From: a virus
IMG/VR virus record: IMGVR_UViG_3300048892_000198
Location: 1 to 64,000 of that record
Strand: one strand, 5' to 3'
DNA: 64,000 bases
Shown: one piece after another, positions 1 to 29,203 of the stretch
Layout: each line of letters begins with the position of its first letter
Numbering within the stretch: the first letter of the stretch is position 1
Position numbers and translations under genes: made by a program
Notes under the pieces: generated by a model
Database searches by the model: none
Seen by the model: the letters and a program-made list of their open reading frames with translations, nothing else
What the model was told of the DNA's origin: nothing

Positions 1-58
1 GATGTTCCCGCGGGTAATGCGACGGCGGTGAAGATCTCCCCTTCACGGAAGATTCAAG

Positions 59-383
59 GTCTCGGTTTCCTTAGGGACCGAGCTCCCTTCGCACGCGTGC
101 GGCCCGTACCCCGACATGTTCACGTAAACGTCTCGGTTTCCTTAGGGACCGAGCTCCCTTCGCACAGATCGAGCGTTGGCGCATCGCCGCGCGCGACTTC
201 ACCGTCTCGGTTTCCTTAGGGACCGAGCTCCCTTCGCACCGATGGTGTGGCCCATCCCGGCACTGTCGCGCACGCGGTCTCGGTTTCCTTAGGGACCGAG
301 CTCCCTTCGCACTGCGTTGCCGGCCATCGCCCAAAACGAAACGGTTCGTCTCGGTTTCCTTAGGGACCGAGCTCCCTTCGCAC
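59..383 (-). CRISPR. Type V-M-like CRISPR mini-array with 5 identical 36-nt repeats and 4 spacers
   Basis: Repeat GTCTCGGTTTCCTTAGGGACCGAGCTCCCTTCGCAC (+) at 59-94, 130-165, 204-239, 277-312 and 348-383. Spacers 95-129 (35 nt), 166-203 (38), 240-276 (37) and 313-347 (35). On the - strand the repeat reads GTGCGAAGGGAGCTCGGTCCCTAAGGAAACCGAGAC, with a CTCGGT/ACCGAG stem and a 3' -GAC end as in Cas12m repeats. Orientation inferred from the co-oriented cas gene and the TTC PAM of the self-match. Confidence 0.97.
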
Positions 384-431
384 CAGTCTAGTTGTCACAG
401 AACGATCCCGCGTACTTACAGCGCGGTTTGC

Positions 432-451
432 GAGCGGTTCAGGAACCGCTC
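432..451. other. Hairpin directly after the cas12m stop codon, within the 68-bp gap before the array
   Basis: Perfect inverted repeat GAGCGGTTC-AG-GAACCGCTC; no U-tract follows. Confidence 0.55.
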
Positions 452-1996
452 TCATTCAGCCGCATCGAGCAACTGATTTTTCGAGTTATTTGCATCCTGA
501 TCCCAGGAGGCACCGCACCCCTCGCAGTCGTGCCGAAGCTCGCGGGCCTTATCCCACTTGCAGAGAGCTCCACAGGCATGACAAGTGAGCGTGCGCTTGG
601 CGGGTTTGAGCACTTCGCACGCTTCCCCGAACACGCTCAAGATCTCGGCTCGGAGATAGTGCGGACCGACGAGGAAGCGGTAGTGGCGCGCCGCCGGGAT
701 CTCGTCCTGTCGTTCGCCAGGAGGCGCCCGCATCACGACGCTCCTCATATCGAACGCCTCCACCACGCACGAGTCGTAGCGGGCAAAGAGCTGCCGCGCC
801 CAGAGCCGGTAGATCTCGCGCCTCGAGCGGAGCGCGCCCGAGTATTCATCTCGCTCCCATTGGTAGAGGTGCCGATCGCGACGCGCCCAGTGCTCGCGAT
901 CGGCTGGGTCTTGCTTCTGAGCCTGCTCAAGGGTGAGCCGCACGCGGCCGAGCTCTCGGTGCGTCGCCGACGGGTCAGCGAGGGCCTCTCTTCGAGCTCG
1001 GGTGCGGCCGCGCGCGTCGCCTAGGTGAGCCGTGGCCATTCCATCGGCGAGCGAGCGCAGGGACTCGGCGTGCTTCTGTCGACCGATGAGCGAGTCGGGG
1101 ATGACGAGGCTCGTCTCGACCCCCTGATCGTCCACGGCGTAGGCCACCCGCACGCCGCCCTCGACGCGGCGCCAGCCAAAGTTGATGGCGCATTTGCCGA
1201 TGCCGGTTTTCGGTCGAGTCGCCGCCGCCGTGTCGAGCGTCAAGTGCACGGAGTAGACCCAGCGATCGCCGATGCGGTCGATGATGAGCCGCGCAAAGAT
1301 GATCCGCACCGGGTAGGGGACACCATCCTTGATTCCCAGCTCAGGGAGCGGGCGGTGATAGACGATGGGCACCTCAAGCGACAGCCCATCACGAAGTCGG
1401 AGCGTGATGACGCGGTGACCACAAGGCTTAGTCGGAAAGCGCGGCGTCTTCGCTCGGAGATCTCGCGCGCGGCAATCAGCGCATCGAAACTCTTCGGGGC
1501 CGATCTGCACGGGCCCCTTCAGAGATCGAAGCGCTGCATTCACCGTGAGCTTGGTTGCTCCCTGCACAGTCGCTGCCAGCATGCCCTCACCATCGTAGCG
1601 ACGGAAGCGCGGGCGAGCGCAAGCCATCACGCGCTTGACCCAGGGCCACTGCTTGCGTGCCGCACGGGCGCGGGCCTTGGACTCGTCACTGCGGCGTGTC
1701 TTCATGGCAGCGGCGACCATCTCGGTCACGGCTTGCTTTTGGCCCCAGCCAATCGAGGTCGCCGCGCCGACAGCGCGGCAGGCGGCGTTGTAGGCCAGCC
1801 GATGCTCGGTCTTCTGCGCATCGTCGAGCGGCGCCATCTGGAGATCTTCGGTGAGGTCGCGCGCGGCGATGCGCCAGCGCTCGATCTCAACGAGAGCGTT
1901 GTAGTAGAGGTTCGAGAGGCGCTGCTCGGCGAGCAAGTCCTCGAAGGTGCCGCCGATGACGCGGGGTTTGAGGGCGCCGTATTTGTAGACGAGCAT
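452..1996 (-). CDS. cas12m: Compact Cas12m-like (type V-M / V-U1) effector, 514 aa, predicted nuclease-inactive
   Basis: Adjacent to the array. Motifs shared with Cas12m: YKYGAL, YNALVEIER, RFRRYDGEG, VPIVYHRPLP, RuvC-I CAINFGWRR (catalytic D replaced by N), RuvC-II VVEAFD, C-terminal CHACG...CEGCG zinc finger and WDQDANN. Confidence 0.88.
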   Translation of the reverse strand: MLVYKYGALKPRVIGGTFEDLLAEQRLSNLYYNALVEIERWRIAARDLTEDLQMAPLDDAQKTEHRLAYNAACRAVGAATSIGWGQKQAVTEMVAAAMKTRRSDESKARARAARKQWPWVKRVMACARPRFRRYDGEGMLAATVQGATKLTVNAALRSLKGPVQIGPEEFRCADCRARDLRAKTPRFPTKPCGHRVITLRLRDGLSLEVPIVYHRPLPELGIKDGVPYPVRIIFARLIIDRIGDRWVYSVHLTLDTAAATRPKTGIGKCAINFGWRRVEGGVRVAYAVDDQGVETSLVIPDSLIGRQKHAESLRSLADGMATAHLGDARGRTRARREALADPSATHRELGRVRLTLEQAQKQDPADREHWARRDRHLYQWERDEYSGALRSRREIYRLWARQLFARYDSCVVEAFDMRSVVMRAPPGERQDEIPAARHYRFLVGPHYLRAEILSVFGEACEVLKPAKRTLTCHACGALCKWDKARELRHDCEGCGASWDQDANNSKNQLLDAAE

Positions 1997-2032
1997 GATT
2001 GGGTGCTACGCTGAAAACGCTAGGACTCTTCC

Positions 2033-2821
2033 TCACGCATCCGGGATCGCTCGCACGTACGATTCGTTGCCCGAGGTGCCCACGAAGAGCGCGAGGCAGA
2101 GCATCTCTTCGCCGGCAGGCACGGTCCAGTCGTGCACGCAGTACGCGCGGCGCTCGGTCAGATCGTAGAGGCTCCGGTAGCTCCGGTGTGCGAGCGCATC
2201 GGGGGCGTTGCGAGAGGTGATGATGTACGTATGCCCCGTGTCGGCGCCGAGCTGCAGGAAGGCCTGCTCGCTCTGGAAGTCGAAGATCTGCTCCGGCGTG
2301 AGAAACGCTCTCAGCACAGCGTTGGCGCGGATCTCGGCAGCCTCGAAATCGGGCGCCGGGCAGCCCTGAGTCGGTTGCGCCACCGTGACGGCGGCAGCAG
2401 GCGTTTTGGCAGACTCTTCTTCTTCCGGCGCGGCCATGTCCATGAGCCCGATCGTCTTGTCGGTGATCTGCTCGATGACGCCGTTCTTGTAGCGCACGAC
2501 AGACAGACAGTCGCGCCCAGGCTTCATCGGCTTCTCGAGTGCCTTCTGCACCTTGGAGATCGGCGCCTCGAGCACGATGGACTGCTCATTAGTGGCATCG
2601 AGATCGATCTTTTCGAGTGCGGATGCGCTAGCCCACGGCGATTTGGTGATCCCCGTTCTCTTGGCCTCCGCCATCAGCGATCGCACCGCCACCTTCTCGG
2701 TGGAGGACAGGCCGACGAGGATGAGCCGGGTCTCCCCATTGCTCACCCGTTCCAGGCGGATGTCCCCGTAGAAGCTCGGGAGGTACCAGGTCAACGGTGG
2801 TGGGCGGTGGATGGTCGTCAT
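2033..2821 (-). CDS. Hypothetical protein, 262 aa, directly upstream of cas12m
   Basis: Internal ATG (MTTIHRPP) preceded by AAGGA; plausible composition; ends 36 bp before cas12m. Confidence 0.7.
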   Translation of the reverse strand: MTTIHRPPPLTWYLPSFYGDIRLERVSNGETRLILVGLSSTEKVAVRSLMAEAKRTGITKSPWASASALEKIDLDATNEQSIVLEAPISKVQKALEKPMKPGRDCLSVVRYKNGVIEQITDKTIGLMDMAAPEEEESAKTPAAAVTVAQPTQGCPAPDFEAAEIRANAVLRAFLTPEQIFDFQSEQAFLQLGADTGHTYIITSRNAPDALAHRSYRSLYDLTERRAYCVHDWTVPAGEEMLCLALFVGTSGNESYVRAIPDA

Positions 2822-3479
2822 GGGGATTTCCTTTTGCAATTCGGTCGACGAGTCCGTCGATCTGTTTCTGCAGCACCGCAAGGTGCGGGCTATCGGGCGC
2901 CTGCGCCTTGAGCAGAGCGACGGCGTGGAGGGCTTGGTTGAGCTCGTCATAGAGCTCAAGCCGGGTCGGCGGCAGAGCCGCCTTGAGCTCCCGAGTCTTC
3001 TTCTGCTCGTTGAAGAAACCCTGGAGCATCATCATCAGATCGCGCTGCATCTGCACCTGATCGGGAACGCCGCCAGGGCCAATGGGCACCCCGAACTGAC
3101 CACCAATGTACGCGGGATGCCTAGGCATCACAGCATCGCCGCGAAGGATGTCGCGATCCTCCTGCTCTTCGGCGTAGCCATTGATGTCGCCCATACCCTG
3201 AGCGATGTACTGACCTTCGGCGCCCAAAAGTCCCTGCATGGCGGCCGCTTGATGATCTTGGGCACGGATCTTCTTGGCCTCAGCGACCGTCTTGACGAGT
3301 TCGGCACTGATCTTCTGGCCCATCACGCACAAACGCGCGGCGCGACCGAAGCGATCGATCGAGGTCGTACCGAGGAGCGCACCAACGGCCTCCGACATGG
3401 AGTCGAGCACGGCGCCGAGCTTCGCGTCGGGGGTAGCCGCGGGCGACGGAAGATCGGGGCTCGGGATCGTCTCAGTCAT
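2628..3479 (-). CDS. Hypothetical helical protein
   Basis: 283-aa ORF; its 3' end overlaps the next gene by 194 bp. Confidence 0.6.
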   Translation of the reverse strand: MTETIPSPDLPSPAATPDAKLGAVLDSMSEAVGALLGTTSIDRFGRAARLCVMGQKISAELVKTVAEAKKIRAQDHQAAAMQGLLGAEGQYIAQGMGDINGYAEEQEDRDILRGDAVMPRHPAYIGGQFGVPIGPGGVPDQVQMQRDLMMMLQGFFNEQKKTRELKAALPPTRLELYDELNQALHAVALLKAQAPDSPHLAVLQKQIDGLVDRIAKGNPHDDHPPPTTVDLVPPELLRGHPPGTGEQWGDPAHPRRPVLHREGGGAIADGGGQENGDHQIAVG

Positions 3480-3669
3480 GGCTGGCCACCCGCGCTAGGC
3501 GCCCGACCTGATGATCGATCTTGAGTTGAGCAGCGATGTCCCAGTAGCCCACGTACACGAGCTCTGAATGCGTGCGGCGCGGATCGGTACGGTAAGCGCG
3601 CTCGATGGTTTCTCGCCATTCGGGAGACTTCCACTCGAGCCTCTGAGCGATTCGGTCGCGGTAGCTCAC
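3472..3669 (-). CDS. Small hypothetical protein
   Basis: GTG start (VSYRDRIAQ); stop overlaps the next start. Confidence 0.5.
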   Translation of the reverse strand: MSYRDRIAQRLEWKSPEWRETIERAYRTDPRRTHSELVYVGYWDIAAQLKIDHQVGRLARVASHD

Positions 3670-3937
3670 GTCGCCAGTCTCCTGATCTGACCCACGATGA
3701 TCTCCGTGTAGGTCCACTTCCTCCGATCTTTTTGCACGAGCCTCTCTCGGGCGGCCTTCAGGTGTTTGAAGTCCTCGGTCGGCATGCGTACCGTCAGCAC
3801 ATGATGGCCTGCCTTCAGCGATTGCTTTTTCTGCTGCTGCATATCCGCTTTGATTCCTTGGAGGATCGCGCCACTAGGCTAGCGCGTGACATCTCGGAAC
3901 TATCACGCCACTATCTCGATGGCAAGCCCAGGTTTCT

Positions 3938-4564
3938 CTAGGTGAGCCACTGCCAGATCGCGCCAGCCCAGGCCGCGTAGCCCCGCGCCACCGGATGAAT
4001 CCCATCGGGACCTCGAGGAAGCGTCAGATTTTGCGAGGGGAAGAGCGAGACGCGGGGCTTCACGCGCGGGAGAGTGATCGCATGCTCGCTGTCGATCAGA
4101 CGGCGCACGCTCTGGAGCGATGCGGCGGCAGCGGGCAAGGTTGGCGGCGCAATCCAGGCAATCGCGCGCGGCGAGACGCCTTCGATCATCGTCAGGAGCT
4201 CGGCGGCATAGGGCGCTTGGCGCGCCCCGATGTCTTCGCCCGGCTGCGGGAGCATGTAGGCGTCGTTCGTGCCGAGGGAGATGAGCACGATCGTCGGCTG
4301 GAAGGCGGCGAGGGCAGCGGCCAGGGGCGCCGACGTTGCCCATTGGTCGATGCGTGTGCCGACCGTGGCCATTGACTGGAACGCGAGCCCATTGTCCCGG
4401 CAGAGGGCGCCGAGGGGAGCCGCGAGCCCGACGGCGAGGGAATCACCGAGGAGGAAGACTCGGTCGCCCTTGCGTAGGGTCGGGGCTCCCAGGAGCTCCA
4501 CGAGACCGACGGTCAGGGTGGCGGCGCCGAGGCCGACGTAGATCCAGGCGCGATTGGTGAGCAT
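3938..4564 (-). CDS. Membrane-anchored SGNH/GDSL hydrolase (esterase)
   Basis: Blocks GDSL, ISLGTND and DGIHP; N-terminal hydrophobic helix; start taken at MLTNRAW. Confidence 0.9.
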   Translation of the reverse strand: MLTNRAWIYVGLGAATLTVGLVELLGAPTLRKGDRVFLLGDSLAVGLAAPLGALCRDNGLAFQSMATVGTRIDQWATSAPLAAALAAFQPTIVLISLGTNDAYMLPQPGEDIGARQAPYAAELLTMIEGVSPRAIAWIAPPTLPAAAASLQSVRRLIDSEHAITLPRVKPRVSLFPSQNLTLPRGPDGIHPVARGYAAWAGAIWQWLT

Positions 4565-4613
4565 GCTGGGGCGAGGGGGCGTTTCTGGACTCGCCGAGCG
4601 ATCCAGGGGTACG

Positions 4614-5279
4614 ATGGAGTCTGCCATGGCGACCGACTTCACCGCAAATAACTGTGGCGGGGCGCGTTGGCGCACCAACCCTGGGGGATTCATTGAGGTC
4701 GAGGGCATGGGCATTCCACTTCTGGAGCCCACCTCGCAGAAATTCCGGGAGCTCGCCCAGACCTGGAAGAACTTCGGCAGCGAGCTCGGCTCGGCCGCCG
4801 ACAAGCACCACCTCCCGAGATCTTGGGCTCTTGCCTTCGCGACGGTGGAAACCGGGTTTCTGTCGTCCGACTACGGCGCGCAGGCTCAGGCGGTCTCTGG
4901 CGCAGGGGCCCTCGGCGTCATGCAACTGATGCCGCAGTACTTCACGAAGTACTCGCGCGCGGAGCTGCTCGATCCGAGCGTCAACATCCCGGTCGGCGTG
5001 GGCTTCATCAAGACGCTGTGCGCGTCCGCCGCGTGCCCATGGCGCTGCGAGCTGCCCTATTTGGGCTCGGTATACAACGCGGGGTCAGGATCGAGTTGCA
5101 TCCAGTGTGACCCCGGGAAAAACGTCTTCAACTTCACCGAGGACGCTGACTACTCGATGCAGCTCGTGATCTACAATAACTCGGCGCTGATGTTTTTAAA
5201 TCTCAGCCCGACGTGGCCGTGGCTCGTCGGGGGCGCGCTCGTCGCTGGCGCGGGCGCCGCGGCTTGGCTCTGGCTATGA
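4614..5279 (+). CDS. Lytic transglycosylase (SLT domain) with C-terminal transmembrane anchor
   Basis: ATVETGF (catalytic Glu), AVSGAGALGVMQLMP, LLDPSVNI, YNAG; C-terminal WPWLVGGALVAGAGAAAWLWL. Confidence 0.9.
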   Translation: MESAMATDFTANNCGGARWRTNPGGFIEVEGMGIPLLEPTSQKFRELAQTWKNFGSELGSAADKHHLPRSWALAFATVETGFLSSDYGAQAQAVSGAGALGVMQLMPQYFTKYSRAELLDPSVNIPVGVGFIKTLCASAACPWRCELPYLGSVYNAGSGSSCIQCDPGKNVFNFTEDADYSMQLVIYNNSALMFLNLSPTWPWLVGGALVAGAGAAAWLWL

Positions 5280-5338
5280 CGAGCCCGGGAACACTGCCTC
5301 GGCCGACGCGCGCATGAGTCCACGGATCATATCGCTGG

Positions 5339-5797
5339 TCAGCATGGGTCGAGCTCGCCTTCCGTCCGACACAACTCGCAGCTCGTTCCGGCGCGTATGT
5401 ACTTGGGACTTCCCTTGCGGTAGCCCCATGAGCACCCATGGCGGTGAGCGAGCGCATTCATGCAGCGCTCGCAGGAGATCGCGCGCAAGATCGCTTGCCG
5501 AAGCCCGATCTCTCGCCAGGGAGGGTAGCCGCGGAGGAGAGCGCGAAGCAGGTTCCCGAGTGACGGGCGAGCCATCGCCAGCGCCAAATCCGGGCTGTAG
5601 GTCGTCGTTCCGGACGCGACCTTGCCGACTCCGATGCGGATGATGTCGTCGGTCACGCTGCACGCAAACTGCGTGCGCTGATAGACGTACCCATCCGGCG
5701 GATCGGAAAGCTCGCGGAAGTGTCGCTCGTCTGGGATCCAGCGTTTGCCTTGCTCGTTCTCGTACCAGAGCTCGGGGATCTGGGCAGTCTGTTCCAT
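5339..5797 (-). CDS. Hypothetical protein with Cys pairs
   Basis: ATG (MEQTAQ) with GAGGA RBS; CERC, HGC and CELC. Confidence 0.6.
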   Translation of the reverse strand: MEQTAQIPELWYENEQGKRWIPDERHFRELSDPPDGYVYQRTQFACSVTDDIIRIGVGKVASGTTTYSPDLALAMARPSLGNLLRALLRGYPPWREIGLRQAILRAISCERCMNALAHRHGCSWGYRKGSPKYIRAGTSCELCRTEGELDPC

Positions 5798-5841
5798 TTT
5801 TCCTCGGGGAAGTTTGTCTCGGTCCCGGCGTATGTGATAGA

Positions 5842-5871
5842 ACACTACTGTCTCTGAGACAGTTCCGTCAA
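5842..5871 (-). promoter_or_regulatory. Sigma70-like promoter with a perfect 17-bp palindrome between -35 and -10
   Basis: On the - strand TTGACG-N18-TAGTGT; palindrome ACTGTCTC-T-GAGACAGT at 5847-5863; lies at a divergent gene junction. Confidence 0.6.
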
Positions 5872-5886
5872 GCCCAGAAGGAACCC

Positions 5887-6075
5887 ATGCGCCTCAACCA
5901 AGACCTCACGCTCCGGGAGATCATCGAGCGCCTCGCCAAATCCGGCGGCAGGCTCCACCTCAACTTCGATCACGGCGTCTACCACGCCTACGTGCACGGG
6001 GACGCCAAGATCACGGCCTACGACCGGGGAGACCTGGCCCAGGCCATTGACGGGGCAACCAGGCAAGCTGGATGA
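5887..6075 (+). CDS. Small hypothetical protein
   Basis: AGGA RBS; first of a translationally coupled + strand cluster. Confidence 0.6.
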   Translation: MRLNQDLTLREIIERLAKSGGRLHLNFDHGVYHAYVHGDAKITAYDRGDLAQAIDGATRQAG

Positions 6076-6302
6076 GTCGCTGCATCACCATCGGCGCCTT
6101 CCAAGTGAAGGTACGCCCGCGCCCGCTCGTCGGCACGAAGACCTTCGTGAAGGCGACGGAGCGGGACATGCGGGACTACGAGTGGTCCGAAGGCTTCATG
6201 GCGAGCGGGAAACCCTACGTGGGCGATCCGCGCGCTGGGCTCCGCTGGCGGAAGCGCGACGAGGCTCGGGTTCAGGAGCGCTTAGCGCGCATGAACAAAT
6301 GA
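6072..6302 (+). CDS. Small hypothetical protein
   Basis: ATGA coupling at both ends. Confidence 0.6.
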   Translation: MSRCITIGAFQVKVRPRPLVGTKTFVKATERDMRDYEWSEGFMASGKPYVGDPRAGLRWRKRDEARVQERLARMNK

Positions 6303-6649
6303 CCGCTCTCCTGGTCCTATCATTGATCGGACTCATCGGCGGCTTCACCGCGCTCTACCTGATCTTCTCTCAAGCGGCGAGACGGACGCGCTCGGTAGAT
6401 CTGCCAGCTCCCGGCGAGAAATGGGAGCACCTCTACCCACCGGAGCCACGCTACGATGGGAGCCCGTGGCCTATCCCAGACAAGCCTGGCGAGGTCGTCA
6501 CGGTGACCATCCGCGACACGCAAAACGGATGGGTGCGCTTCTACCATGGGGACAAACCCGATGACTCCGGAGACGGCCCCCGCGATCGCCGAGAGCACAT
6601 CTCGAACTTCATGCGGCGCTTCACGCGCAAGCCCCCGGAAACTCTATGA
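6299..6649 (+). CDS. Hypothetical membrane-anchored protein
   Basis: ATGA-coupled start MTALLVLSLIGLIGG (TM helix). Confidence 0.6.
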   Translation: MTALLVLSLIGLIGGFTALYLIFSQAARRTRSVDLPAPGEKWEHLYPPEPRYDGSPWPIPDKPGEVVTVTIRDTQNGWVRFYHGDKPDDSGDGPRDRREHISNFMRRFTRKPPETL

Positions 6650-7074
6650 GTATGCTTAGGTCCCATGACTGGGAGTACGATCTCGACCTCGCTCGCGCGT
6701 ACACGCGCTACCGCTGCCTCTCCTGCCAATCGTCCAAGTACGAGCACCGCGATGGTCGAGTGACCTATGAAACAGTCACGTTTCCCGACGATCCCACCCA
6801 GCCGCCGCTCATCTCAAAAGAGCTAGCGGAGGAGCCCTGCTGCTTTCCTCCGTTCGATCCCCACATTCCGTTCGAAGATCTTGCGAAGGCGGGATTTGTG
6901 CCGGTCGCACGGGGCTCGAAACCGCAGCCCGTCGAATTGCTGCATGAAGCCACCGTGCGGCGCATCGCGGGGTACCTGCGCGCCGAGAGCTACCTATCTG
7001 CGGCTGAGCGCGTACTCGTCAAAGAGAAGGCGCTGGCGGGCAAACTCGCGGTGCCATGGGTTGACGACTCATGA
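6646..7074 (+). CDS. Hypothetical protein
   Basis: ATGA coupling; HDW...CLSC zinc-ribbon-like N-terminus. Confidence 0.6.
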   Translation: MSMLRSHDWEYDLDLARAYTRYRCLSCQSSKYEHRDGRVTYETVTFPDDPTQPPLISKELAEEPCCFPPFDPHIPFEDLAKAGFVPVARGSKPQPVELLHEATVRRIAGYLRAESYLSAAERVLVKEKALAGKLAVPWVDDS

Positions 7075-7310
7075 CCGTGCGTGCGGTGCAGATACCCAGG
7101 ATCCGCACAGCCTGTGGAGTGCAGCGTGAGACGTATCGCTGCTGCCTCGACATCACTCGCGTGGTCGAGTCTTGGGATCCTCGCGCCAATATCTGGCGTC
7201 CCGAGATCCGACTCTGTCACCTGCACGCGATCGAGTACGTGACCGGGGAGCCAGTCTTCTTGCCGACGTTCGCGCAGCAGGAACTCACGATGCGAAGGCT
7301 CGGCGCGTGA
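7071..7310 (+). CDS. Small hypothetical protein
   Basis: ATGA/GTGA coupling. Confidence 0.5.
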   Translation: MTVRAVQIPRIRTACGVQRETYRCCLDITRVVESWDPRANIWRPEIRLCHLHAIEYVTGEPVFLPTFAQQELTMRRLGA

Positions 7311-7477
7311 AGCCCTGCGACAATTGCAGCGAGCCCTCCAAGCGCCGGTACCGGTGCGCGAGCTGCTCTGCACTCAACTGCTACCTGTGCACTGACCACT
7401 CTTGGAAAGGCGCCTGCTATTGCGTCACCGTCAAGCAATGTGAAGCGCGCCGACGTGAGCGAACCACCCGCGCGTGA
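7307..7477 (+). CDS. Small Cys-rich zinc-finger protein
   Basis: GTGA coupling; CDNC, CASC, CYLC, CYC. Confidence 0.5.
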   Translation: MKPCDNCSEPSKRRYRCASCSALNCYLCTDHSWKGACYCVTVKQCEARRRERTTRA

Positions 7478-7665
7478 AAGCCATCCTCTTTCTCCGCGCG
7501 TTCCTGAGCGAGATCTTCCCGCCCAAGCGCCGCATCGTGCGGCTCATCCGTCCGCACTGGCACACCCACGACTCGGCGCTGCTCGAGTGCGGGCACCGCG
7601 TCGTGGTCCTGAACTACTCCCTGGCTGCCCAGAGCCACGCGCGGTGCAATCGCTGCCTGCGCTAG
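7474..7665 (+). CDS. Small zinc-ribbon protein
   Basis: LECGH...CNRC; GTGA coupling. Confidence 0.55.
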   Translation: MKAILFLRAFLSEIFPPKRRIVRLIRPHWHTHDSALLECGHRVVVLNYSLAAQSHARCNRCLR

Positions 7666-8843
7666 ACGGCTTTGCCGTCAACGGTCACTGAGGTCGCGTC
7701 CGTCACCACGATGGTGCGCGCCGTGTGCGTGACGGGGGGCGGCACCGGGACAGGTGGGGGCGGAGGGGGAGGCACGGGCACCGGAGTCGTGCCCTTCAGC
7801 GCCGCCAGCAGCTTGTCACCGATCGGCACGCCGTTGCCCGTGCAGCAATCATAACCAGGGCGCGCTACGAAGGTGCCGTTGTTGCCGCTCGTGATGTCGC
7901 GGTTCCAGCCCTTGACTGCGTAGAGCGAGGCATGGAGCTGGCCCACTGGTTTGCCGAGGGCCTGCGAGAGCACGGCTGCGAGCGCGGCCCACATGGGCGC
8001 GACGGCGCTCGTGCCGCCGATGACCATCTGCTGACCGTCCACGATGACGTTCCAGCCGGTCTCGGGATCGGCGCAGCCGGCAACATCGGGGACGCCGCGG
8101 CGGGTCGAGCCCGGCACGTTGGAGGCCTTCTGGTACGAGGGCAACGCAAAGATCGCGCTCGTGCCGCCGCCCGTCGCGCCGCCTTGGCTGCCGTCGTTCC
8201 AGACGTTCTCGGTGAGGGGGGAGGTCGAGGGTAGACTCGTTCCGCCGCAACCGAGCACGTAGGGGCTGCTCGCCGGGAAATCGACATGCTGTCCCGCTTC
8301 GCCGTCGCCCGATCCGTTGTCGCCGGCAGCGGCCGTCACGGTGATGCCCTTACTCGCCGCCGCCGCGAACGCATTCTCGAAGCTCGAGATGGCCGAGATC
8401 GTCCATTGATTTTCTGCCGCGCCCCAGGAGATCGAAATCGCGGTCATATTGTCTGCGATCGCTTGATTGATGGCGGCGAGGAATCCCGCATCCGTGTTGG
8501 GGGCCATGTAGCAGTGGAGCTCGGCGCCTGGAGCCATGCCGCCGATGACGCAGAGGTCGAGCATCACCTCGCCATCGGCACCGTTCGGGTCGCCGGGGGC
8601 ATTCGGGGCGCCGCTCACACTGTGGAAAACGACGGGCTTGACCGAGAGACCAAGCGACTGGAAATACTTGTCGAGATCGGCTTGCACGTAGCCTCCGCCG
8701 AGCTCGATGACGGCGACCTTCATGCCCGTCCCATCGAAGCCCTTCGGGAAGCCGTAGATCTGCGCGAGCTGCTTCGGCGTGTAGCTCACGCCAGCCGTAT
8801 TGTGTTTGAAGTGGCGATGCTTGATGTAGGAACGAAACGTCAT
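7662..8843 (-). CDS. Sedolisin/kumamolisin-like S53 peptidase, catalytic domain only
   Basis: GEVMLD (Glu/Asp), SISWG, AAAGDNG (oxyanion Asp), GGTSAVAP (Ser) and a GYDxxTGxG Ca-binding-like site; Pro-rich C-terminal tail; no pro-domain or signal peptide. Confidence 0.92.
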   Translation of the reverse strand: MTFRSYIKHRHFKHNTAGVSYTPKQLAQIYGFPKGFDGTGMKVAVIELGGGYVQADLDKYFQSLGLSVKPVVFHSVSGAPNAPGDPNGADGEVMLDLCVIGGMAPGAELHCYMAPNTDAGFLAAINQAIADNMTAISISWGAAENQWTISAISSFENAFAAAASKGITVTAAAGDNGSGDGEAGQHVDFPASSPYVLGCGGTSLPSTSPLTENVWNDGSQGGATGGGTSAIFALPSYQKASNVPGSTRRGVPDVAGCADPETGWNVIVDGQQMVIGGTSAVAPMWAALAAVLSQALGKPVGQLHASLYAVKGWNRDITSGNNGTFVARPGYDCCTGNGVPIGDKLLAALKGTTPVPVPPPPPPPVPVPPPVTHTARTIVVTDATSVTVDGKAV

Positions 8844-8920
8844 GTGCTTGCTCTCCGAATAAAGATCCCCCGCACCACCAAGTGTGCGGGGAGATCTAGC
8901 AGACTCGGAAAGCCGGAGCT

Positions 8921-9688
8921 TCAGTCTTCGTCGTCCTCGTCGTCATCTTCCGAATCGTCGTCGTCGTCCTCGCCGTCACCGCAACTCTCGCTGGCGGCGT
9001 TCATGAAGGCTTCGTTGAGCTTGCCGGACCCGCTCCCGTCCGCAAACTTACCGAGCTTGCTCTTCAGGAATTTCTCGGCCTTGTCGGTGTCTTCGTAGAA
9101 GTCGACCCAGTCACCGTCCCAGATCCCGACGCCTTCACCGCGGAGCGTCATCAGCACCAAGTAGGGGCCGTTGGCGTCCCAGAGATCTTCGGCGCCGGCG
9201 TCGTTTTCTGGAGGGTATTTCTCGACGAGCTCGGCGAGCGCCTTCTTCAGCGCTGCATCGTACTCACGGGCGACCTCGAAGACTTCTTCGTTAGGCTCGG
9301 CATCCTCCCAGTTATCGAGCTCCATGCTCTCGGCTGCCATCTCGCAGTAGGCCTTGAGTAGCACCGGATCATCGGCGAGACCGTGTGAGTCGGGGGGACG
9401 ACGCGCATTCGCAGTGAGCTTCCCGAGCCCGCGCCGCTGGAGAGCCGATCGGATTTGGCCTGCCGCTTCATCGAGCGGACCCGCACCTGCCGGGTAGCCC
9501 ACCTGGCGAGCCAACTCGGCCAAGGCAGAAGAGATCTGAGCGATACGCTGCGCAACCAGATCTTTGGAGGCGCCGGACTGCACCTCGTAGTCGAGCGCAC
9601 GCATCGAGCGCATGGCCGCGGCGCTCATCTCGCAGCGCGCTTCGTCACCAGAGTCCGTAGATCGATTCGGAACGCTCTTCTTCGGCAT
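8921..9688 (-). CDS. Two-domain phage protein with acidic C-terminus (anti-defence candidate)
   Basis: LMTLRGEGVGIWDGDW resembles the phage LTRNGHGAGFWD motif; poly-D/E tail; LTAN linker. Confidence 0.7.
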   Translation of the reverse strand: MPKKSVPNRSTDSGDEARCEMSAAAMRSMRALDYEVQSGASKDLVAQRIAQISSALAELARQVGYPAGAGPLDEAAGQIRSALQRRGLGKLTANARRPPDSHGLADDPVLLKAYCEMAAESMELDNWEDAEPNEEVFEVAREYDAALKKALAELVEKYPPENDAGAEDLWDANGPYLVLMTLRGEGVGIWDGDWVDFYEDTDKAEKFLKSKLGKFADGSGSGKLNEAFMNAASESCGDGEDDDDDSEDDDEDDED

Positions 9689-9708
9689 GGACTTTCTCCT
9701 ACGTCACA

Positions 9709-10329
9709 CTATCTGGAACGCTTCCCTTTGGGCAAGAGCACCCAGGCCCCCGCTCCGAGCACAACCGCTGATCCCAAGATCCAGGGCAGGGCCGAATCGC
9801 TCTCCGCTGACGCGATCAACGGCTCGATCGAATAGAACGCCGCCACGTGCGAAAACTCGGTCTCGCTCGCGCTGACGGCGCCCGCGGTCCCGTTGCCGTT
9901 GACGAGACCGATCGTGCCGTCGTAGCTCACGTCCGTCACGACCGCCTGGTGCTGATTGTTCGTGAAGTAAGCGATGTCGCCGGGCTGGGGGGTTTCGGTC
10001 GTCGGGAGGTGATCGAGGAAGCCCTGACCGATCACCCAGTTGAGGTCGCGCGCGAGCCCCGCCTGGTGCAGCGACCACAGCGCGAACGCTCCGCACCAAT
10101 CCGGCGGGTAGCCCGAGGGCGGAGTGCCCGGGAGCACGTCGGCCCAGTAGGGGTCGGCATTCGAGCGGCCGAGCTGGCTCTGGGCGGCCCGCACGACGCG
10201 CGCGCGCGGCGGGACGGGCCAGAGCGCGTAGGCGCCGACGGCGAGCCCCGCTGCCCCAAGGCCTGCCAAAGCCCAGCCTTGGGGCGTCTGGGGCAGGAGG
10301 CGCCTAGCGGGGGCAGAGAGCAGGAGCAC
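9709..10329 (-). CDS. CHAP/NlpC-P60-like peptidoglycan hydrolase flanked by TM helices
   Basis: DWCGAFALW, PQPGDIAYF, HQAVV, VNGN; TM helices at both ends. Start uncertain: GTG 10329 chosen because the upstream ATG collides with the divergent gene. Confidence 0.85.
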   Translation of the reverse strand: MLLLSAPARRLLPQTPQGWALAGLGAAGLAVGAYALWPVPPRARVVRAAQSQLGRSNADPYWADVLPGTPPSGYPPDWCGAFALWSLHQAGLARDLNWVIGQGFLDHLPTTETPQPGDIAYFTNNQHQAVVTDVSYDGTIGLVNGNGTAGAVSASETEFSHVAAFYSIEPLIASAESDSALPWILGSAVVLGAGAWVLLPKGKRSR

Positions 10330-10414
10330 GCCCCGAAAAGTAGCATCCTCCGGAGGGGACTGATAGTTTTCGAAGGGAAGAAAGGCGCCCTGGGCGCCGT
10401 AGGACCCAGAGAGC

Positions 10415-11883: not shown

Positions 11884-12300
11884 ATGGCCGCTCGACGCAA
11901 AGCAAAACCCGCTGGACCGAAGAAGATCACCGAAGAGGACGTGAAGGCCGCAGTCGACGTGATCAGCTCTGAATACTGGCAAGAAGTGCGCGAGTGCGCC
12001 CAGGACTTCATCGAGCGCTTCAACAAAGGCGAGTTCAGGGACGAGGAAGACTACCGAGAGCAACTCGAGCAGTACGTCGATGGGTCACAGCGCGTGATCT
12101 ATACCTACTGGGCGCGCCTTGGGCTACTCGCCACCAACTCTGCAGAGGCTTACGAGGAAGAGACCGGTGAGGTTCCGGCGGGTGACTCAGCTGGGATCTC
12201 CAGGCAGATGTACTTCGCCTTCCGGCAAGACATCCTGAACAACATCGGTTCGGACATCGACTTCGACGAAGGCGGCCCCAAGCACCGTCGCCGCATATAA
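11884..12300 (+). CDS. Ocr-like (T7 gp0.3-like) acidic DNA-mimic candidate with basic termini
   Basis: Acidic helical core EFRDEEDYREQLEQYVDGSQRVIYTY resembles the Ocr DxLHxxxDxxVxxYY segment; N-terminal MAARRKAK and C-terminal KHRRRI. Confidence 0.6.
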   Translation: MAARRKAKPAGPKKITEEDVKAAVDVISSEYWQEVRECAQDFIERFNKGEFRDEEDYREQLEQYVDGSQRVIYTYWARLGLLATNSAEAYEEETGEVPAGDSAGISRQMYFAFRQDILNNIGSDIDFDEGGPKHRRRI

Positions 12301-12368
12301 AATCTTGGTAATGGGTCATTTTGAGTTATCCCTAGAAAACGGCTGCGAATCGCGCGATTCCGTTCTGG

Positions 12369-25371: not shown

Positions 25372-26186
25372 CAGGCGGCGCTCCGTCTGCCCGTGACGAG
25401 CTTGTAGGCGCCCACGGCGGCGACGGCGCCGAGCGCGACCCAAAGGATCGCCTTGGTGTTGGTGGAAGCAGTGGGCGCCATCGCGGCGGGCGCCAGCGGC
25501 ACGGGCGCATTCGAGCCCGGGATTTGTGGCTGCCCAGGGCTCACCGGGCTCACCGGAATAGTGGACTGCACGGCCGGCGTCGCCGGCACCGTGATCGGTC
25601 CCTGCCGGAGCTGCGCGTTGAATGCGCTCGGGAAAGACCCCGATGCTGGGTGCGCGCGGTCTGACGCGGGAGGCGAGATCTCCAGGATGTACACGAGCAC
25701 GCCACCGATAGTCGTCGCGGCGTAGTTGAGCGAGGTCGGGCCGGTCTTCGGATCGGCACCGTCTCTCAGCCTCAGCCAGTAGAGGAAATAGATCCGAGGC
25801 GGGCTCGCATTGTCGAGCTGCGAGTAGACGGCTTCGGTGCGGTCGTACGCGAAGGGCGTGCCCTCGAAGGCTGCTTTGACAGCTTGCTGCCCCGTCAGCA
25901 CCGGAGAGATGACGGCAAGCTCTTGCACCACGCTGGAAGTGGTATTCGTGACGGAGACGAGCTGGAGGTCATTGACCGCGTACGCCTGGTAGTCCTTGAG
26001 CGGAGAGGCCTCGACCCACGAGGTCTCGAGCGTTGGCGACTGTGCGGCCCACTCGGTGTAGACGAGACTCGGAGCCGCACCGATGAGCGCGAGGAGCGCC
26101 TGGTCGGCAAGCGGGAGCGATTGATCGTCGGCGCCGAGCCCCGACAGATCATTGCGAAAATAGGAGGAGCCGAAGCGCAGCGTCAC
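25371..26186 (-). CDS. GLG-family tail-anchored virion-like protein
   Basis: SYFRNDLSGLGAD; Pro-rich linker; TM plus K..RR. Confidence 0.75.
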   Translation of the reverse strand: MTLRFGSSYFRNDLSGLGADDQSLPLADQALLALIGAAPSLVYTEWAAQSPTLETSWVEASPLKDYQAYAVNDLQLVSVTNTTSSVVQELAVISPVLTGQQAVKAAFEGTPFAYDRTEAVYSQLDNASPPRIYFLYWLRLRDGADPKTGPTSLNYAATTIGGVLVYILEISPPASDRAHPASGSFPSAFNAQLRQGPITVPATPAVQSTIPVSPVSPGQPQIPGSNAPVPLAPAAMAPTASTNTKAILWVALGAVAAVGAYKLVTGRRSAA

Positions 26187-26336
26187 GTGAGCCCTCCTTG
26201 AAAAATCACGAAGAAGCAGCCGTGCCCACCTGTCAGGACAGTTCCCAGCCGCTTGAGGTTTTTATGTCCTCGGTTGGTGGGAAAAGGTTCGGGGGGGGGC
26301 ACGGCTACTCCTTCGGGAAGACTGGGGGTTGGAGCG

Positions 26337-27158
26337 TTAAACGCCGCCAGATTTCGTGATGCAGGGCGCGATCGCCTTCTGCATCGCGATCAAATTGCTA
26401 TCAGGCATCAGAAACCCAAACACGCTCGCTTCGAAGAAGCCTACCGGGATCGGGATGGCTCGGAATACCGAGCAGCTCATGATGAAGTCCTCGCTCGAGT
26501 GCAAGATCCAGGGAGCCGGCACATGGAGCAGCCCCTGGCGGAAGTGGCGCTGCGGCATGAGGCTGAGGCCGAATGACGGCGACTGCACGCTCGAGGCACG
26601 GGCGGCGGCAAAATCATCGTCCGTCGCCGATCCCGGAGCCGAAGCCGACGGGATGCCGAGGTTCGGCATCGACTGATAGGCGGGCGAAGATGCGTTGGCG
26701 GGCGGCAGGGGATTGAGCTCGTAGTGGTAGTTGCCCTGGCGATTGGCGTTGGCCTTGATGTCCCAGCCGACTTGCGTGGAGAGGCGATTGTCCTCGAGCT
26801 CGACGAAGTCTCCGGCGGCGCTCCCGCTCGGCCTGTAGATCGCAAAGCGCGTGTCGAGTACGACGAAGCCCATCGTCTCAGGCACGTGCACGAAGCCCAT
26901 CTCGAACTCGCACTGCTGGCTCGGCGTCGCAGTGAAGATTCCGTCGATCGGCAGCCGTCGAAACACCGCCTCGAACGGCACGATCGATTCGGGGATGAGG
27001 TAGCTACTAAGCTGGCCTCCGGCGAGCATCACGCGATCGGTTGCGCACGCCGTGATGACGCCGCCATTGAGGCTCGGCTGCCCGAACAATGCTGGATTCG
27101 CGCGCCCGAGCGCGGCGAAGCCCGCTTGCTGCTGGGGGTTGAACAGAGGCTGATCCAT
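26337..27158 (-). CDS. Putative single-jelly-roll capsid-like protein 3 (minor capsid or penton)
   Basis: Beta pattern FEMGFVHVPETMGFVV, VGWDIKAN, PWILHSSEDFIMSC and terminal ASVFGFLMP; third of a tandem trio; fold is an inference. Confidence 0.5.
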   Translation of the reverse strand: MDQPLFNPQQQAGFAALGRANPALFGQPSLNGGVITACATDRVMLAGGQLSSYLIPESIVPFEAVFRRLPIDGIFTATPSQQCEFEMGFVHVPETMGFVVLDTRFAIYRPSGSAAGDFVELEDNRLSTQVGWDIKANANRQGNYHYELNPLPPANASSPAYQSMPNLGIPSASAPGSATDDDFAAARASSVQSPSFGLSLMPQRHFRQGLLHVPAPWILHSSEDFIMSCSVFRAIPIPVGFFEASVFGFLMPDSNLIAMQKAIAPCITKSGGV

Positions 27159-28301: not shown

Positions 28302-29054
28302 TTACTGAACGTCTCGGCTGAAGAGCCCATCGAACGTGAACGTCACGACCTTGTTGATCGCGTCGATCGCGTTCAGGTTGTCGCGTAGGCTCAGCAGGCT
28401 GCGCTGGCCCTGGCTCGTCCCGGCGATGTTCGTGTTGGGATCTCCGGGCAAGGCGTAGATGTTCGCCGTGCACTTGATGTTCTGGCGCGGGGGGATCAAG
28501 ATCGCGCGGGCGAGCCGCAAGATGCCCGAGTGACCATCCGTGCCGGAGTTCTGCATGTGGATGAGGTCGGTCGCGCCGCCGAGCTGAGCCGAGAGGCCGC
28601 CGCCCGTCGGGAAGTACCAGGTCGGCATGTTGGTGATCGAGAACTTCTCGCCGGTGCCGAAGCTCCAGTGAAGTTGCTCCTCGGTCTGCCAATGCAGCCG
28701 AAACACGTCTTCGATCTGGCCTGGAGCTTGGCCCACGGCCGCTCCCGACCCAGTCCAGAGCGCCAAGTTGCCGTAGTCGCCGTTCAGGGCGAGCTCGCCA
28801 TCGACGCCCGCAACGCGCAGGATGCTGTTCCGGTACCAGGAGAACACCCGCAGCGCCAAGACGACGTGCGACTGATCGGAGGGCAGCGTGCTGCCGTTCT
28901 GGAGGTTGGTGGTGGCAGGGGTCCGGACGGTGCCCGACCCGCCGAAGAGATCGGTCGTGTCGCCGACCGTACCCTGGCTGTAGCCAGGCGTGCGGATCAG
29001 GGTATCCCAGAAGGGTTGGTGCACGCGCTCACGAATGGAAACGACTTTGGCCAT
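28302..29054 (-). CDS. Putative major capsid protein (single jelly roll)
   Basis: QPFWDT...TNLQNGSTLP...VLALRV, IPPRQNIKC and terminal VTFTFDGLFSRDVQ; strong AAGGAAG RBS, structured UTRs and position after the core protein; fold is an inference. Confidence 0.65.
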   Translation of the reverse strand: MAKVVSIRERVHQPFWDTLIRTPGYSQGTVGDTTDLFGGSGTVRTPATTNLQNGSTLPSDQSHVVLALRVFSWYRNSILRVAGVDGELALNGDYGNLALWTGSGAAVGQAPGQIEDVFRLHWQTEEQLHWSFGTGEKFSITNMPTWYFPTGGGLSAQLGGATDLIHMQNSGTDGHSGILRLARAILIPPRQNIKCTANIYALPGDPNTNIAGTSQGQRSLLSLRDNLNAIDAINKVVTFTFDGLFSRDVQ

Positions 29055-29203
29055 GATGGTACTTCTTCCTTAGCGGGTCTTTACGATGATTATGAGAGGC
29101 TCGGTTCCTCTTTGGACCCAGCAATACTTCGAGCCCAGGGCCTCGGTTTTCCGAGACCTCCTGGGCCGAAGCACTCACCCTTGCGGGTTACTGTTCGTTC
29201 ACC

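Follow-up and report, generated by a model that had tools for sequence, protein, structure and literature searches.

A compact, apparently virus-restricted Cas12m clade, a phage spacer nearly matching that phage's own cas12m, and evidence of targeting between sibling phages

Effectors of the Cas12m family (type V-M of CRISPR, the clustered and regularly interspaced short palindromic repeats) have been divided into clades by their RuvC triads, with N-E-D listed for clades 3 and 4 (PMC10442227). Bigelyte et al. reported that all eight of the Cas12m proteins they tested, of D-E-D, H-D-D and N-D-D forms, bind DNA without cutting it (PMC11013384). The known Cas12m handle is a compact, repeat-derived fold with a pseudoknot (PMC11013384), and the protospacer-adjacent motif (PAM) of characterised members is TTN or YTN (PMC10442227; 10.64898/2026.03.26.714355). 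Plasmid V-M systems and virus mini-arrays have already been read as tools of competition between elements (PMC11656645), and a September 2026 preprint calls MvCas12m the first phage Cas12m (bioRxiv 10.64898/2026.09.14.751636). Here, we describe a type V-M locus on the minus strand of a 64,000-nucleotide stretch of virus DNA (the window), which covers positions 1 to 64,000 of the 110,728-bp IMG/VR record IMGVR_UViG_3300048892_000198 (G000). The locus comprises a cas12m gene (452-1996), encoding the 514-residue protein P0001, followed after a 68-bp gap (384-451) by a CRISPR array of five identical 36-nucleotide repeats and four spacers (59-383). An initial annotation, made from the sequence alone, had placed the effector, its C-A-I-N-F-G-W motif, the gap and the repeats correctly.

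A nuclease-dead virus Cas12m without adaptation genes is already known; what is new is the compact clade to which P0001 belongs. The main interest of the locus lies in this clade, which appears to be virus-restricted, and in the evidence for targeting of sibling phages, including a near-match between one spacer and the phage's own cas12m. The earlier reading did not use this spacer, which changes how the function of the locus is understood. We hold it to be slightly better than an even bet that this is a working type V-M locus, in which a DNA-binding CRISPR system is used in competition between phages.

P0001 is a Cas12m-family (type V-M) effector, and this assignment is secure. Pfam and NCBIfam searches gave weak zinc-ribbon or TnpB-tail matches, and a single-sequence search matched the solved Cas12m 23vw with an E-value of 1.6e-37. 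In the PDB, a profile built from 37 relatives matched all solved Cas12m structures over its full length (profile positions 2-455), namely 23vw (3e-103), UnCas12m4a (7e-56), GoCas12m (3.6e-45) and MmCas12m2 (1.1e-43), whereas TnpB, Cas12f and Fanzor were matched over the C-terminal RuvC and zinc-ribbon third only (1e-5 to 1e-12). The AlphaFold2 model of P0001 (predicted local distance difference test score, pLDDT, 87.8; predicted template modelling score, pTM, 0.78) has the Cas12m fold, with WED, REC, RuvC with its helical insert and zinc ribbon, and its first four Foldseek ranks are taken by Cas12m2 and GoCas12m (E-values 2.5e-19 to 3.6e-16).

Given the resemblance of the C-terminal RuvC and zinc ribbon to those of TnpB, we considered whether P0001 is instead an IS605-type TnpB or a TldR-like protein that works with an omega-RNA, the repeats being incidental. 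Structural comparison with VIA lends this some colour, as the Z scores for TnpB (18-20) come close to those for Cas12m2 and GoCas12m (21-22.5), but 325-341 residues were aligned with TnpB and 428-449 with the Cas12m structures. Sequence matches to TnpB are confined to the last ~130 residues (1e-7 to 1e-12, against 1e-43 to 1e-103 over the full length for Cas12m), and NCBIfam TnpB models, whose cut-offs are 100 and 425 bits, reach no more than 9.5-9.9 bits. Moreover, seven of the nine compact-clade relatives examined that have sequence downstream of the gene carry a true array there, with diverse spacers. A TnpB or TldR identity is therefore hardly credible, and the choice of Cas12m over IS605 TnpB made in the initial annotation is borne out by the single-sequence and profile matches, Foldseek and VIA alike.

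Alignment to 23vw places Asn272 (codon 1181-1183) at the RuvC-I position, which is Asp in 23vw and in nuclease-active Cas12 and TnpB. Glu413 of RuvC-II (758-760), in a nearly invariant column, and Asp501 of RuvC-III (494-496), within an invariant D499-Q500-D501, are retained. The zinc-ribbon or TNB domain (476-592), which gives a weak match to Pfam PF07282 over residues 469-507, contains Cys472, Cys475, Cys491 and Cys494, all invariant in the alignment of relatives. Since the RuvC-I Asp is replaced by Asn, and no tested Cas12m cuts DNA, P0001 is probably a non-cutting, DNA-binding protein. The effector had been annotated as nuclease-dead. The Asn at RuvC-I on which this was based is confirmed, but it is not peculiar to P0001, being found throughout the clade, and the N-E-D triad had already been published; the loss of cleavage should be taken as predicted.

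A word-indexed search recovered 48 close relatives of 425-520 residues, and an exhaustive phmmer search of 1.84 billion representatives gave about 14 clusters at 50% identity, followed by a gap up to forms of 560-700 residues. In a quick maximum-likelihood tree, from which the partial rows P0029, P0053 and P0062 were excluded, the 48 compact proteins form one clade (Shimodaira-Hasegawa-like approximate likelihood ratio test, SH-aLRT, 100) on a stem of 1.32 changes per column. Of these 48, the search pattern read N[FL]GWR in 46 and did not read it in two, and the RuvC-II Glu and RuvC-III Asp are kept in the members examined column by column. The RuvC-I position of longer relatives is mostly Asp, with a few Asn or His. 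Compared with P0001, these longer relatives have 31-77 added residues after residue 61, where the first REC helical hairpin has its tip; a further 8-21 follow residue 327, and there is a tail at the C terminus. It is at the site after residue 61 that GoCas12m has its 'roof' insertion (residues 50-124; PMC11013384). Because the extra residues fall at this site, the shorter REC helical region proposed in the initial annotation holds, and most of the REC 'roof' helices are missing from the compact clade, as is part of the RuvC helical insert.

The compact clade was located only on metagenomic, mostly virus-like contigs. Two distant relatives were found in GTDB species genomes, one in GenBank phages and eleven in plasmids, the last with identities no higher than 30%; a plasmid of Meiothermus silvanus, a species whose Cas12m has already been characterised, accounts for one of these eleven. 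Apart from such distant matches, at 34% identity or less, the clade was not found in GTDB species genomes, cultured phages or plasmids, and it is apparently virus-restricted. More broadly, IMG/VR contains 63 loci encoding Cas12m-like proteins, 41 of them with an array directly after the gene. These numbers do not fit the description of MvCas12m as the first phage Cas12m, and virus-borne V-M loci are far commoner than the literature suggests. Sixty-one further virus contigs of IMG/VR (L008-L068) carry longer Cas12m-like proteins; in most of them the gene is immediately followed by an array, and G-A-G-A-C or C-G-A-C is the ending of many repeats. A 520-residue member of the compact clade, 60% identical, is encoded on a 127-kb contig (L086:8001-9563).

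The virus origin of the window, also noted initially, follows from its IMG/VR virus record, which is classed as linear with an estimated completeness of 82%. The nearest relatives of P0001 lie on contigs of 126-136 kb, and the carrier is a large soil phage lineage of about 110-136 kb. Within it, G001 is a relative of 135,429 bp with direct terminal repeats and a completeness rating of 100%, syntenic with G000 at 65-76% nucleotide identity, whose Cas12m is 72% identical to P0001. G002 is a 41-kb relative with a Cas12m 41% identical, L082 a relative locus with a protein 80% identical to P0001, and L083 a sibling phage whose genome is known over 13 kb only.

In order of transcription, the repeats of the window lie at 348-383, 277-312, 204-239, 130-165 and 59-94, and the spacers, of 35-38 nucleotides, at 313-347, 240-276, 166-203 and 95-129; repeat analysis and a covariance model (51.9 bits, minus strand) agree on the array. 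Past the last repeat, the 58 nucleotides to the start of the record (1-58) contain no further repeat, either by sequence or by the covariance model. The alignment of 30 repeat variants from three phages supports a repeat RNA that combines a hairpin of 6 bp with a pseudoknot helix of 3 bp, with 96% of cells paired. Both sides have changed in six of the nine pairs, none of 500 shuffles reached the observed values, and slid controls collapsed. Only on the gene's strand is the hairpin close to the repeat's 3' end, and a conserved G-A-G-A-C closes the repeats; gene and array are therefore most likely read in one direction. The 68-bp gap between stop codon and first repeat is the presumed leader; a scan of it found no sigma-70-like promoter and no terminator, and its fold was not above background. 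As the initial annotation had noted for the window, no anti-repeat was found: a search of the 110.7-kb record that allowed up to 3 mismatches gave no copy of the repeat on the reverse strand, and no inverted repeat involving the CRISPR repeat was found within 4 kb; the more diverged opposite-strand units at 110300-110692 are sense repeats there by their 3' end and hairpin. The locus would thus need no trans-activating CRISPR RNA (tracrRNA), as expected of type V-M.

The description of a mini-array did not hold as a trait of the lineage, because the number of spacers in relatives ranges from 1 to 27. There are 23 spacers in G001, 27 in G002, 11 in L082 and at least five in both L083 and L089, where the contigs end; L147, with a C-terminus 83% identical, shows one repeat only, no array lies within 8 kb in L086, and the array of the window itself is 58 nucleotides from the contig end. 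No spacers common to the arrays of different relatives were found, so the arrays turn over. Two spacers of the same G001 array (26304-26339 and 25793-25828) are near-duplicates (34/36).

This turnover takes place in a lineage without adaptation genes. Six-frame Pfam hidden Markov model (HMM) searches, in which control genomes gave matches, found no Cas1, Cas2 or Cas4 in G000 (110.7 kb), the complete G001 or the 41-kb G002, and none of the three genes was found in the 7 kb beyond the L082 array. The initial annotation had reported none in the window and allowed that cas1 and cas2 might lie just outside it; these searches indicate otherwise, and there is nothing to inspect to the left, since position 1 of the window is base 1 of the record. 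Considering that the lineage lacks cas1, cas2 and cas4, spacers would be acquired in trans or by another route, and arrays of up to 27 spacers raise the question of how. The borrowing of host adaptation machinery put forward in the initial annotation is, on these data, conjectural.

The same data bear on the idea that gene and array are functionless leftovers of a decaying system. A short array at a contig end, with three spacers for which no target was found, is what decay might leave behind. Nevertheless, the open reading frame is intact, ~120 positions are invariant across 29 relatives at identities down to 56%, the five repeats are identical, the pairs of the repeat RNA are kept by compensatory changes, and arrays turn over between relatives. 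A relic, already disfavoured, is thus very unlikely.

The third spacer (166-203, minus strand) near-matches the phage's own cas12m at 1850-1887, with 36 of 38 positions identical (E-value 2.7e-12 within the 110-kb record). This self-protospacer falls in codons 37-49 and is flanked by TTC at 1847-1849 on the non-target strand (feature 1847-1887, plus strand); TTN makes up 3.5% of trinucleotides, which is the chance level for such a flank. The two mismatches are at guide position 6 (codon 48, Leu in the resident gene and Phe in the spacer) and at guide position 28 (codon 40, synonymous). With one synonymous change and one Phe for Leu, the spacer seems to resemble the homologous gene of another phage, which suggests that it was taken from a foreign cas12m.

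Comparison of 76 spacers from seven arrays with all sequences of the lineage examined identified matches between siblings as well. Spacer 5 of L083 matches the complete G001 at 102068-102103 (36/36, flank CTC), and spacer 4 matches it at 120619-120653 (34/35, flank CGT, with the mismatch at guide position 24); L083 and G001 are 72-89% identical over the 9 kb they have in common. Near-self matches were found in G000 (36/38), G001 (30/34) and G002 (35/37). All three of these near-self matches have a mismatch within guide positions 1-11, and neither of the two sibling matches does. Mismatches within the first 11 nucleotides are reportedly tolerated very poorly by MmCas12m (preprint 10.64898/2026.10.26.761838). 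Targeting of a sibling virus is thus suggested by L083 and G001, with the array of the window itself showing a near-self match only.

The main rival to competition between phages is self-regulation, in which spacer 166-203 would guide Cas12m to its own codons 37-49 and form a negative feedback loop whose strength is lowered by the mismatch at position 6. The site in the resident gene does have a PAM-like TTC flank, and 36 of 38 bases pair. Targeting the own genome would not be lethal, because the effector should bind DNA and leave it uncut, and tuning of CRISPR interference (CRISPRi) by guide mismatches is accepted practice. Autoregulation of Cas proteins by natural guides is known from tracr-L and CreR. 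A further hint, towards sensing of the handle, comes from repeat-like units, two or three in number and with short spacers, that immediately precede cas12m in G001 (28975-29122; L070:8975-9122, minus strand) and L083 (L083:7855-7962, plus strand). In both, the 'guide' of the last unit runs into the start codon of cas12m, and these units may serve regulation through the protein's own RNA handle; they are not present in the window or in L082. Against a feedback loop, no cas12m-matching spacer was seen in G001, G002, L082, L083 or L089, and the near-self spacers of G001 and G002 match other places. The mismatch falls where MmCas12m tolerates none, the spacer's Phe in place of the resident Leu is what a foreign homologue would be expected to show, and the target is within the open reading frame, not at a promoter. 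On balance, we regard self-regulation as rather unlikely.

Several observations also count against competition between phages. The version of cas12m represented by spacer 166-203 is absent from all relatives examined, and no exact target was found for any of the window's four spacers: their exact 24-mers are not in IMG/VR, and no match was found in the relatives examined. The PAM-side flanks of the five protospacers are mixed (TTC, CTC, TCC, CGT and CGT), type V-M being expected to have a 5' T- or C-rich PAM. The numbers are small: a seed mismatch in all three near-self matches would arise by chance about one time in five, and the mismatch rules applied to them come from MmCas12m, which is ~20% identical to P0001. 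Finally, L083 is known over 13 kb only, and its two spacers could therefore match L083 itself.

Spacers without targets can be read in another way, namely that the phage takes over its host with Cas12m, programmed to repress host genes or defence loci, the unmatched spacers being aimed at the host. Three of the four window spacers are without a match in any search, and some phage CRISPR systems do target host defence (PMC11656645). A degenerate second array at the far end of the record, outside the window (110300-110692, plus strand; L081:6300-6692), likewise has guides of 17-35 nucleotides that match nothing in the phage. Nevertheless, all matches that were found in the lineage are to phage genomes, and we consider host take-over improbable, more so than self-regulation.

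For competition between phages, the mechanism might be as follows. The array would be transcribed together with cas12m on the minus strand, each 36-nucleotide repeat folding into a hairpin-plus-pseudoknot handle, and Cas12m would process the transcript and keep one CRISPR RNA (crRNA). The complex would then bind PAM-flanked double-stranded DNA and block transcription or replication without cutting. The arrays of the lineage would be aimed at sibling phages, as competition during co-infection or as superinfection exclusion, and spacer 166-203, presumably taken from a sibling's cas12m, would place the CRISPR effector of a rival among the targets. The resident cas12m would be spared or only weakly repressed because of the mismatch at guide position 6, in the mismatch-intolerant part of the guide.

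The degenerate array at the right end of G000 consists of seven repeat-like units, no two of which are identical. Their stems carry compensatory changes, each unit scores 40-50 bits with the repeat model, and the units are opposite in strand to the main array; the conserved 3' end and the hairpin indicate sense repeats there. When PAM-proximal guide seeds from degenerate units were searched against the genomes that carry them, no convincing match emerged. The suggestion that the right-end units are closer to the repeats of rivals than to the phage's own was not supported (28-32 of 36 positions for own repeats, up to 34 for others). In G002 (L076, L077), about ten solitary repeat units are scattered along the contig (5693, 9030, 11751, 12334, 12584, 17975, 19048, 27874, 36323 and 38797), and a spacer of the main array matches 35 of 37 positions at 12275-12311, beside two of them.

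These units would find a place in a more far-reaching account, in which members of the large-phage lineage fight one another by RNA guidance, armed with a miniature Cas12m that binds without cutting. The arrays would silence sibling genomes, including the sibling's cas12m, and residents would escape through seed mismatches. The degenerate units at the right end, those upstream of cas12m in G001 and L083, and the single units of G002 would be hard-wired guides or RNA decoys for the Cas12m of rivals, and new spacers would enter without Cas1-Cas2. As a whole, this account is speculative, and we would be surprised if all of its parts held together.

Compared with G001, the array, cas12m and a block of ~10 kb (window 1-10400) are inverted relative to the rest (18000-64000), and ~25 kb of G001 (1-25.7 kb) have no counterpart in G000. 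The possibility that the record ends in inverted terminal repeats was rejected, as its two ends have just CRISPR-like repeats in common. Regarding a circular genome in which the two ends would abut, L086 carries, 3 kb downstream of its cas12m, a homologue of a gene found near the right end of the record; the same link was not seen at L082. Annotation of the virus is poor, with matches to a DnaB helicase, a clamp, a transglycosylase, a GDSL lipase and collagen-like fibre proteins. The region 88-99 kb of G000 (L080) contains several large open reading frames whose collagen-like sequence is repeated internally and cross-matches G001 at many points; a 1695-residue collagen-like protein encoded there matches PHROG tail-fibre families, which was not accepted as evidence of a tail.

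Natural Cas12m proteins of 425-514 residues would be the smallest of a family used for CRISPRi, base editing and epigenome editing. Delivery in such editing is limited by size, and the clade points to parts that have been removed in nature, namely the 'roof' of REC and some of the RuvC insert. The locus also offers sequence-based evidence for an apparently binding-only CRISPR system acting between sibling phages, with a rival's effector gene among the probable targets. To the logic of mini-arrays and plasmid V-M systems, it adds a phage that brings its own, predicted binding-only, effector.

Among known systems, the characterised Cas12m proteins (MmCas12m2, 8hhl; GoCas12m, 8pm4; MsCas12m; PmCas12m; 23vw; 23vu) are the closest. 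P0001 is homologous to them over its full length and has the same fold, and the systems resemble each other in a single crRNA, a 36-nucleotide repeat with hairpin and pseudoknot, the lack of tracrRNA and adaptation genes, an altered RuvC triad and a mobile-element carrier. However, P0001 is ~20% identical to the Mm and Go proteins and 60-100 residues shorter, mainly through missing REC 'roof' helices and a reduced RuvC helical insert, and the compact clade has N-E-D throughout and resides on large phages, not plasmids. TnpB and TldR have the RuvC and zinc-ribbon core and the small size in common with P0001, and TldR is likewise a dead nuclease used for repression, but the similarity is confined to the C-terminal core, and P0001 has an array in place of an omega-RNA or transposon context. 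Guides of the tracr-L or CreR type show partial complementarity to the system's own cas promoter and are conserved among relatives; here, the match is within the open reading frame and was not found in five relatives, while the repeat-like units upstream of cas12m in G001 and L083 would suit such regulation.

MvCas12m of myxophage MV-1 (bioRxiv 10.64898/2026.09.14.751636) is also phage-borne, with an adjoining array and without cas1, cas2, cas4 or tracrRNA. It differs in having 610 residues, an intact D-E-D triad and no protospacer found, against 425-520 residues, N-E-D, and sibling as well as near-self protospacers for the compact clade. Virus arrays for competition between viruses also have spacers that match close relatives of the carrier and lack adaptation genes, but they use the effector of the host, whereas the phage described here brings its own, which is predicted to bind only. 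In plasmid type IV and V-M systems, binding interference is likewise directed against competitors of the same kind; unlike those systems, carrier and targets here would both be phages, and one of the targets appears to be the cas12m of a competitor.

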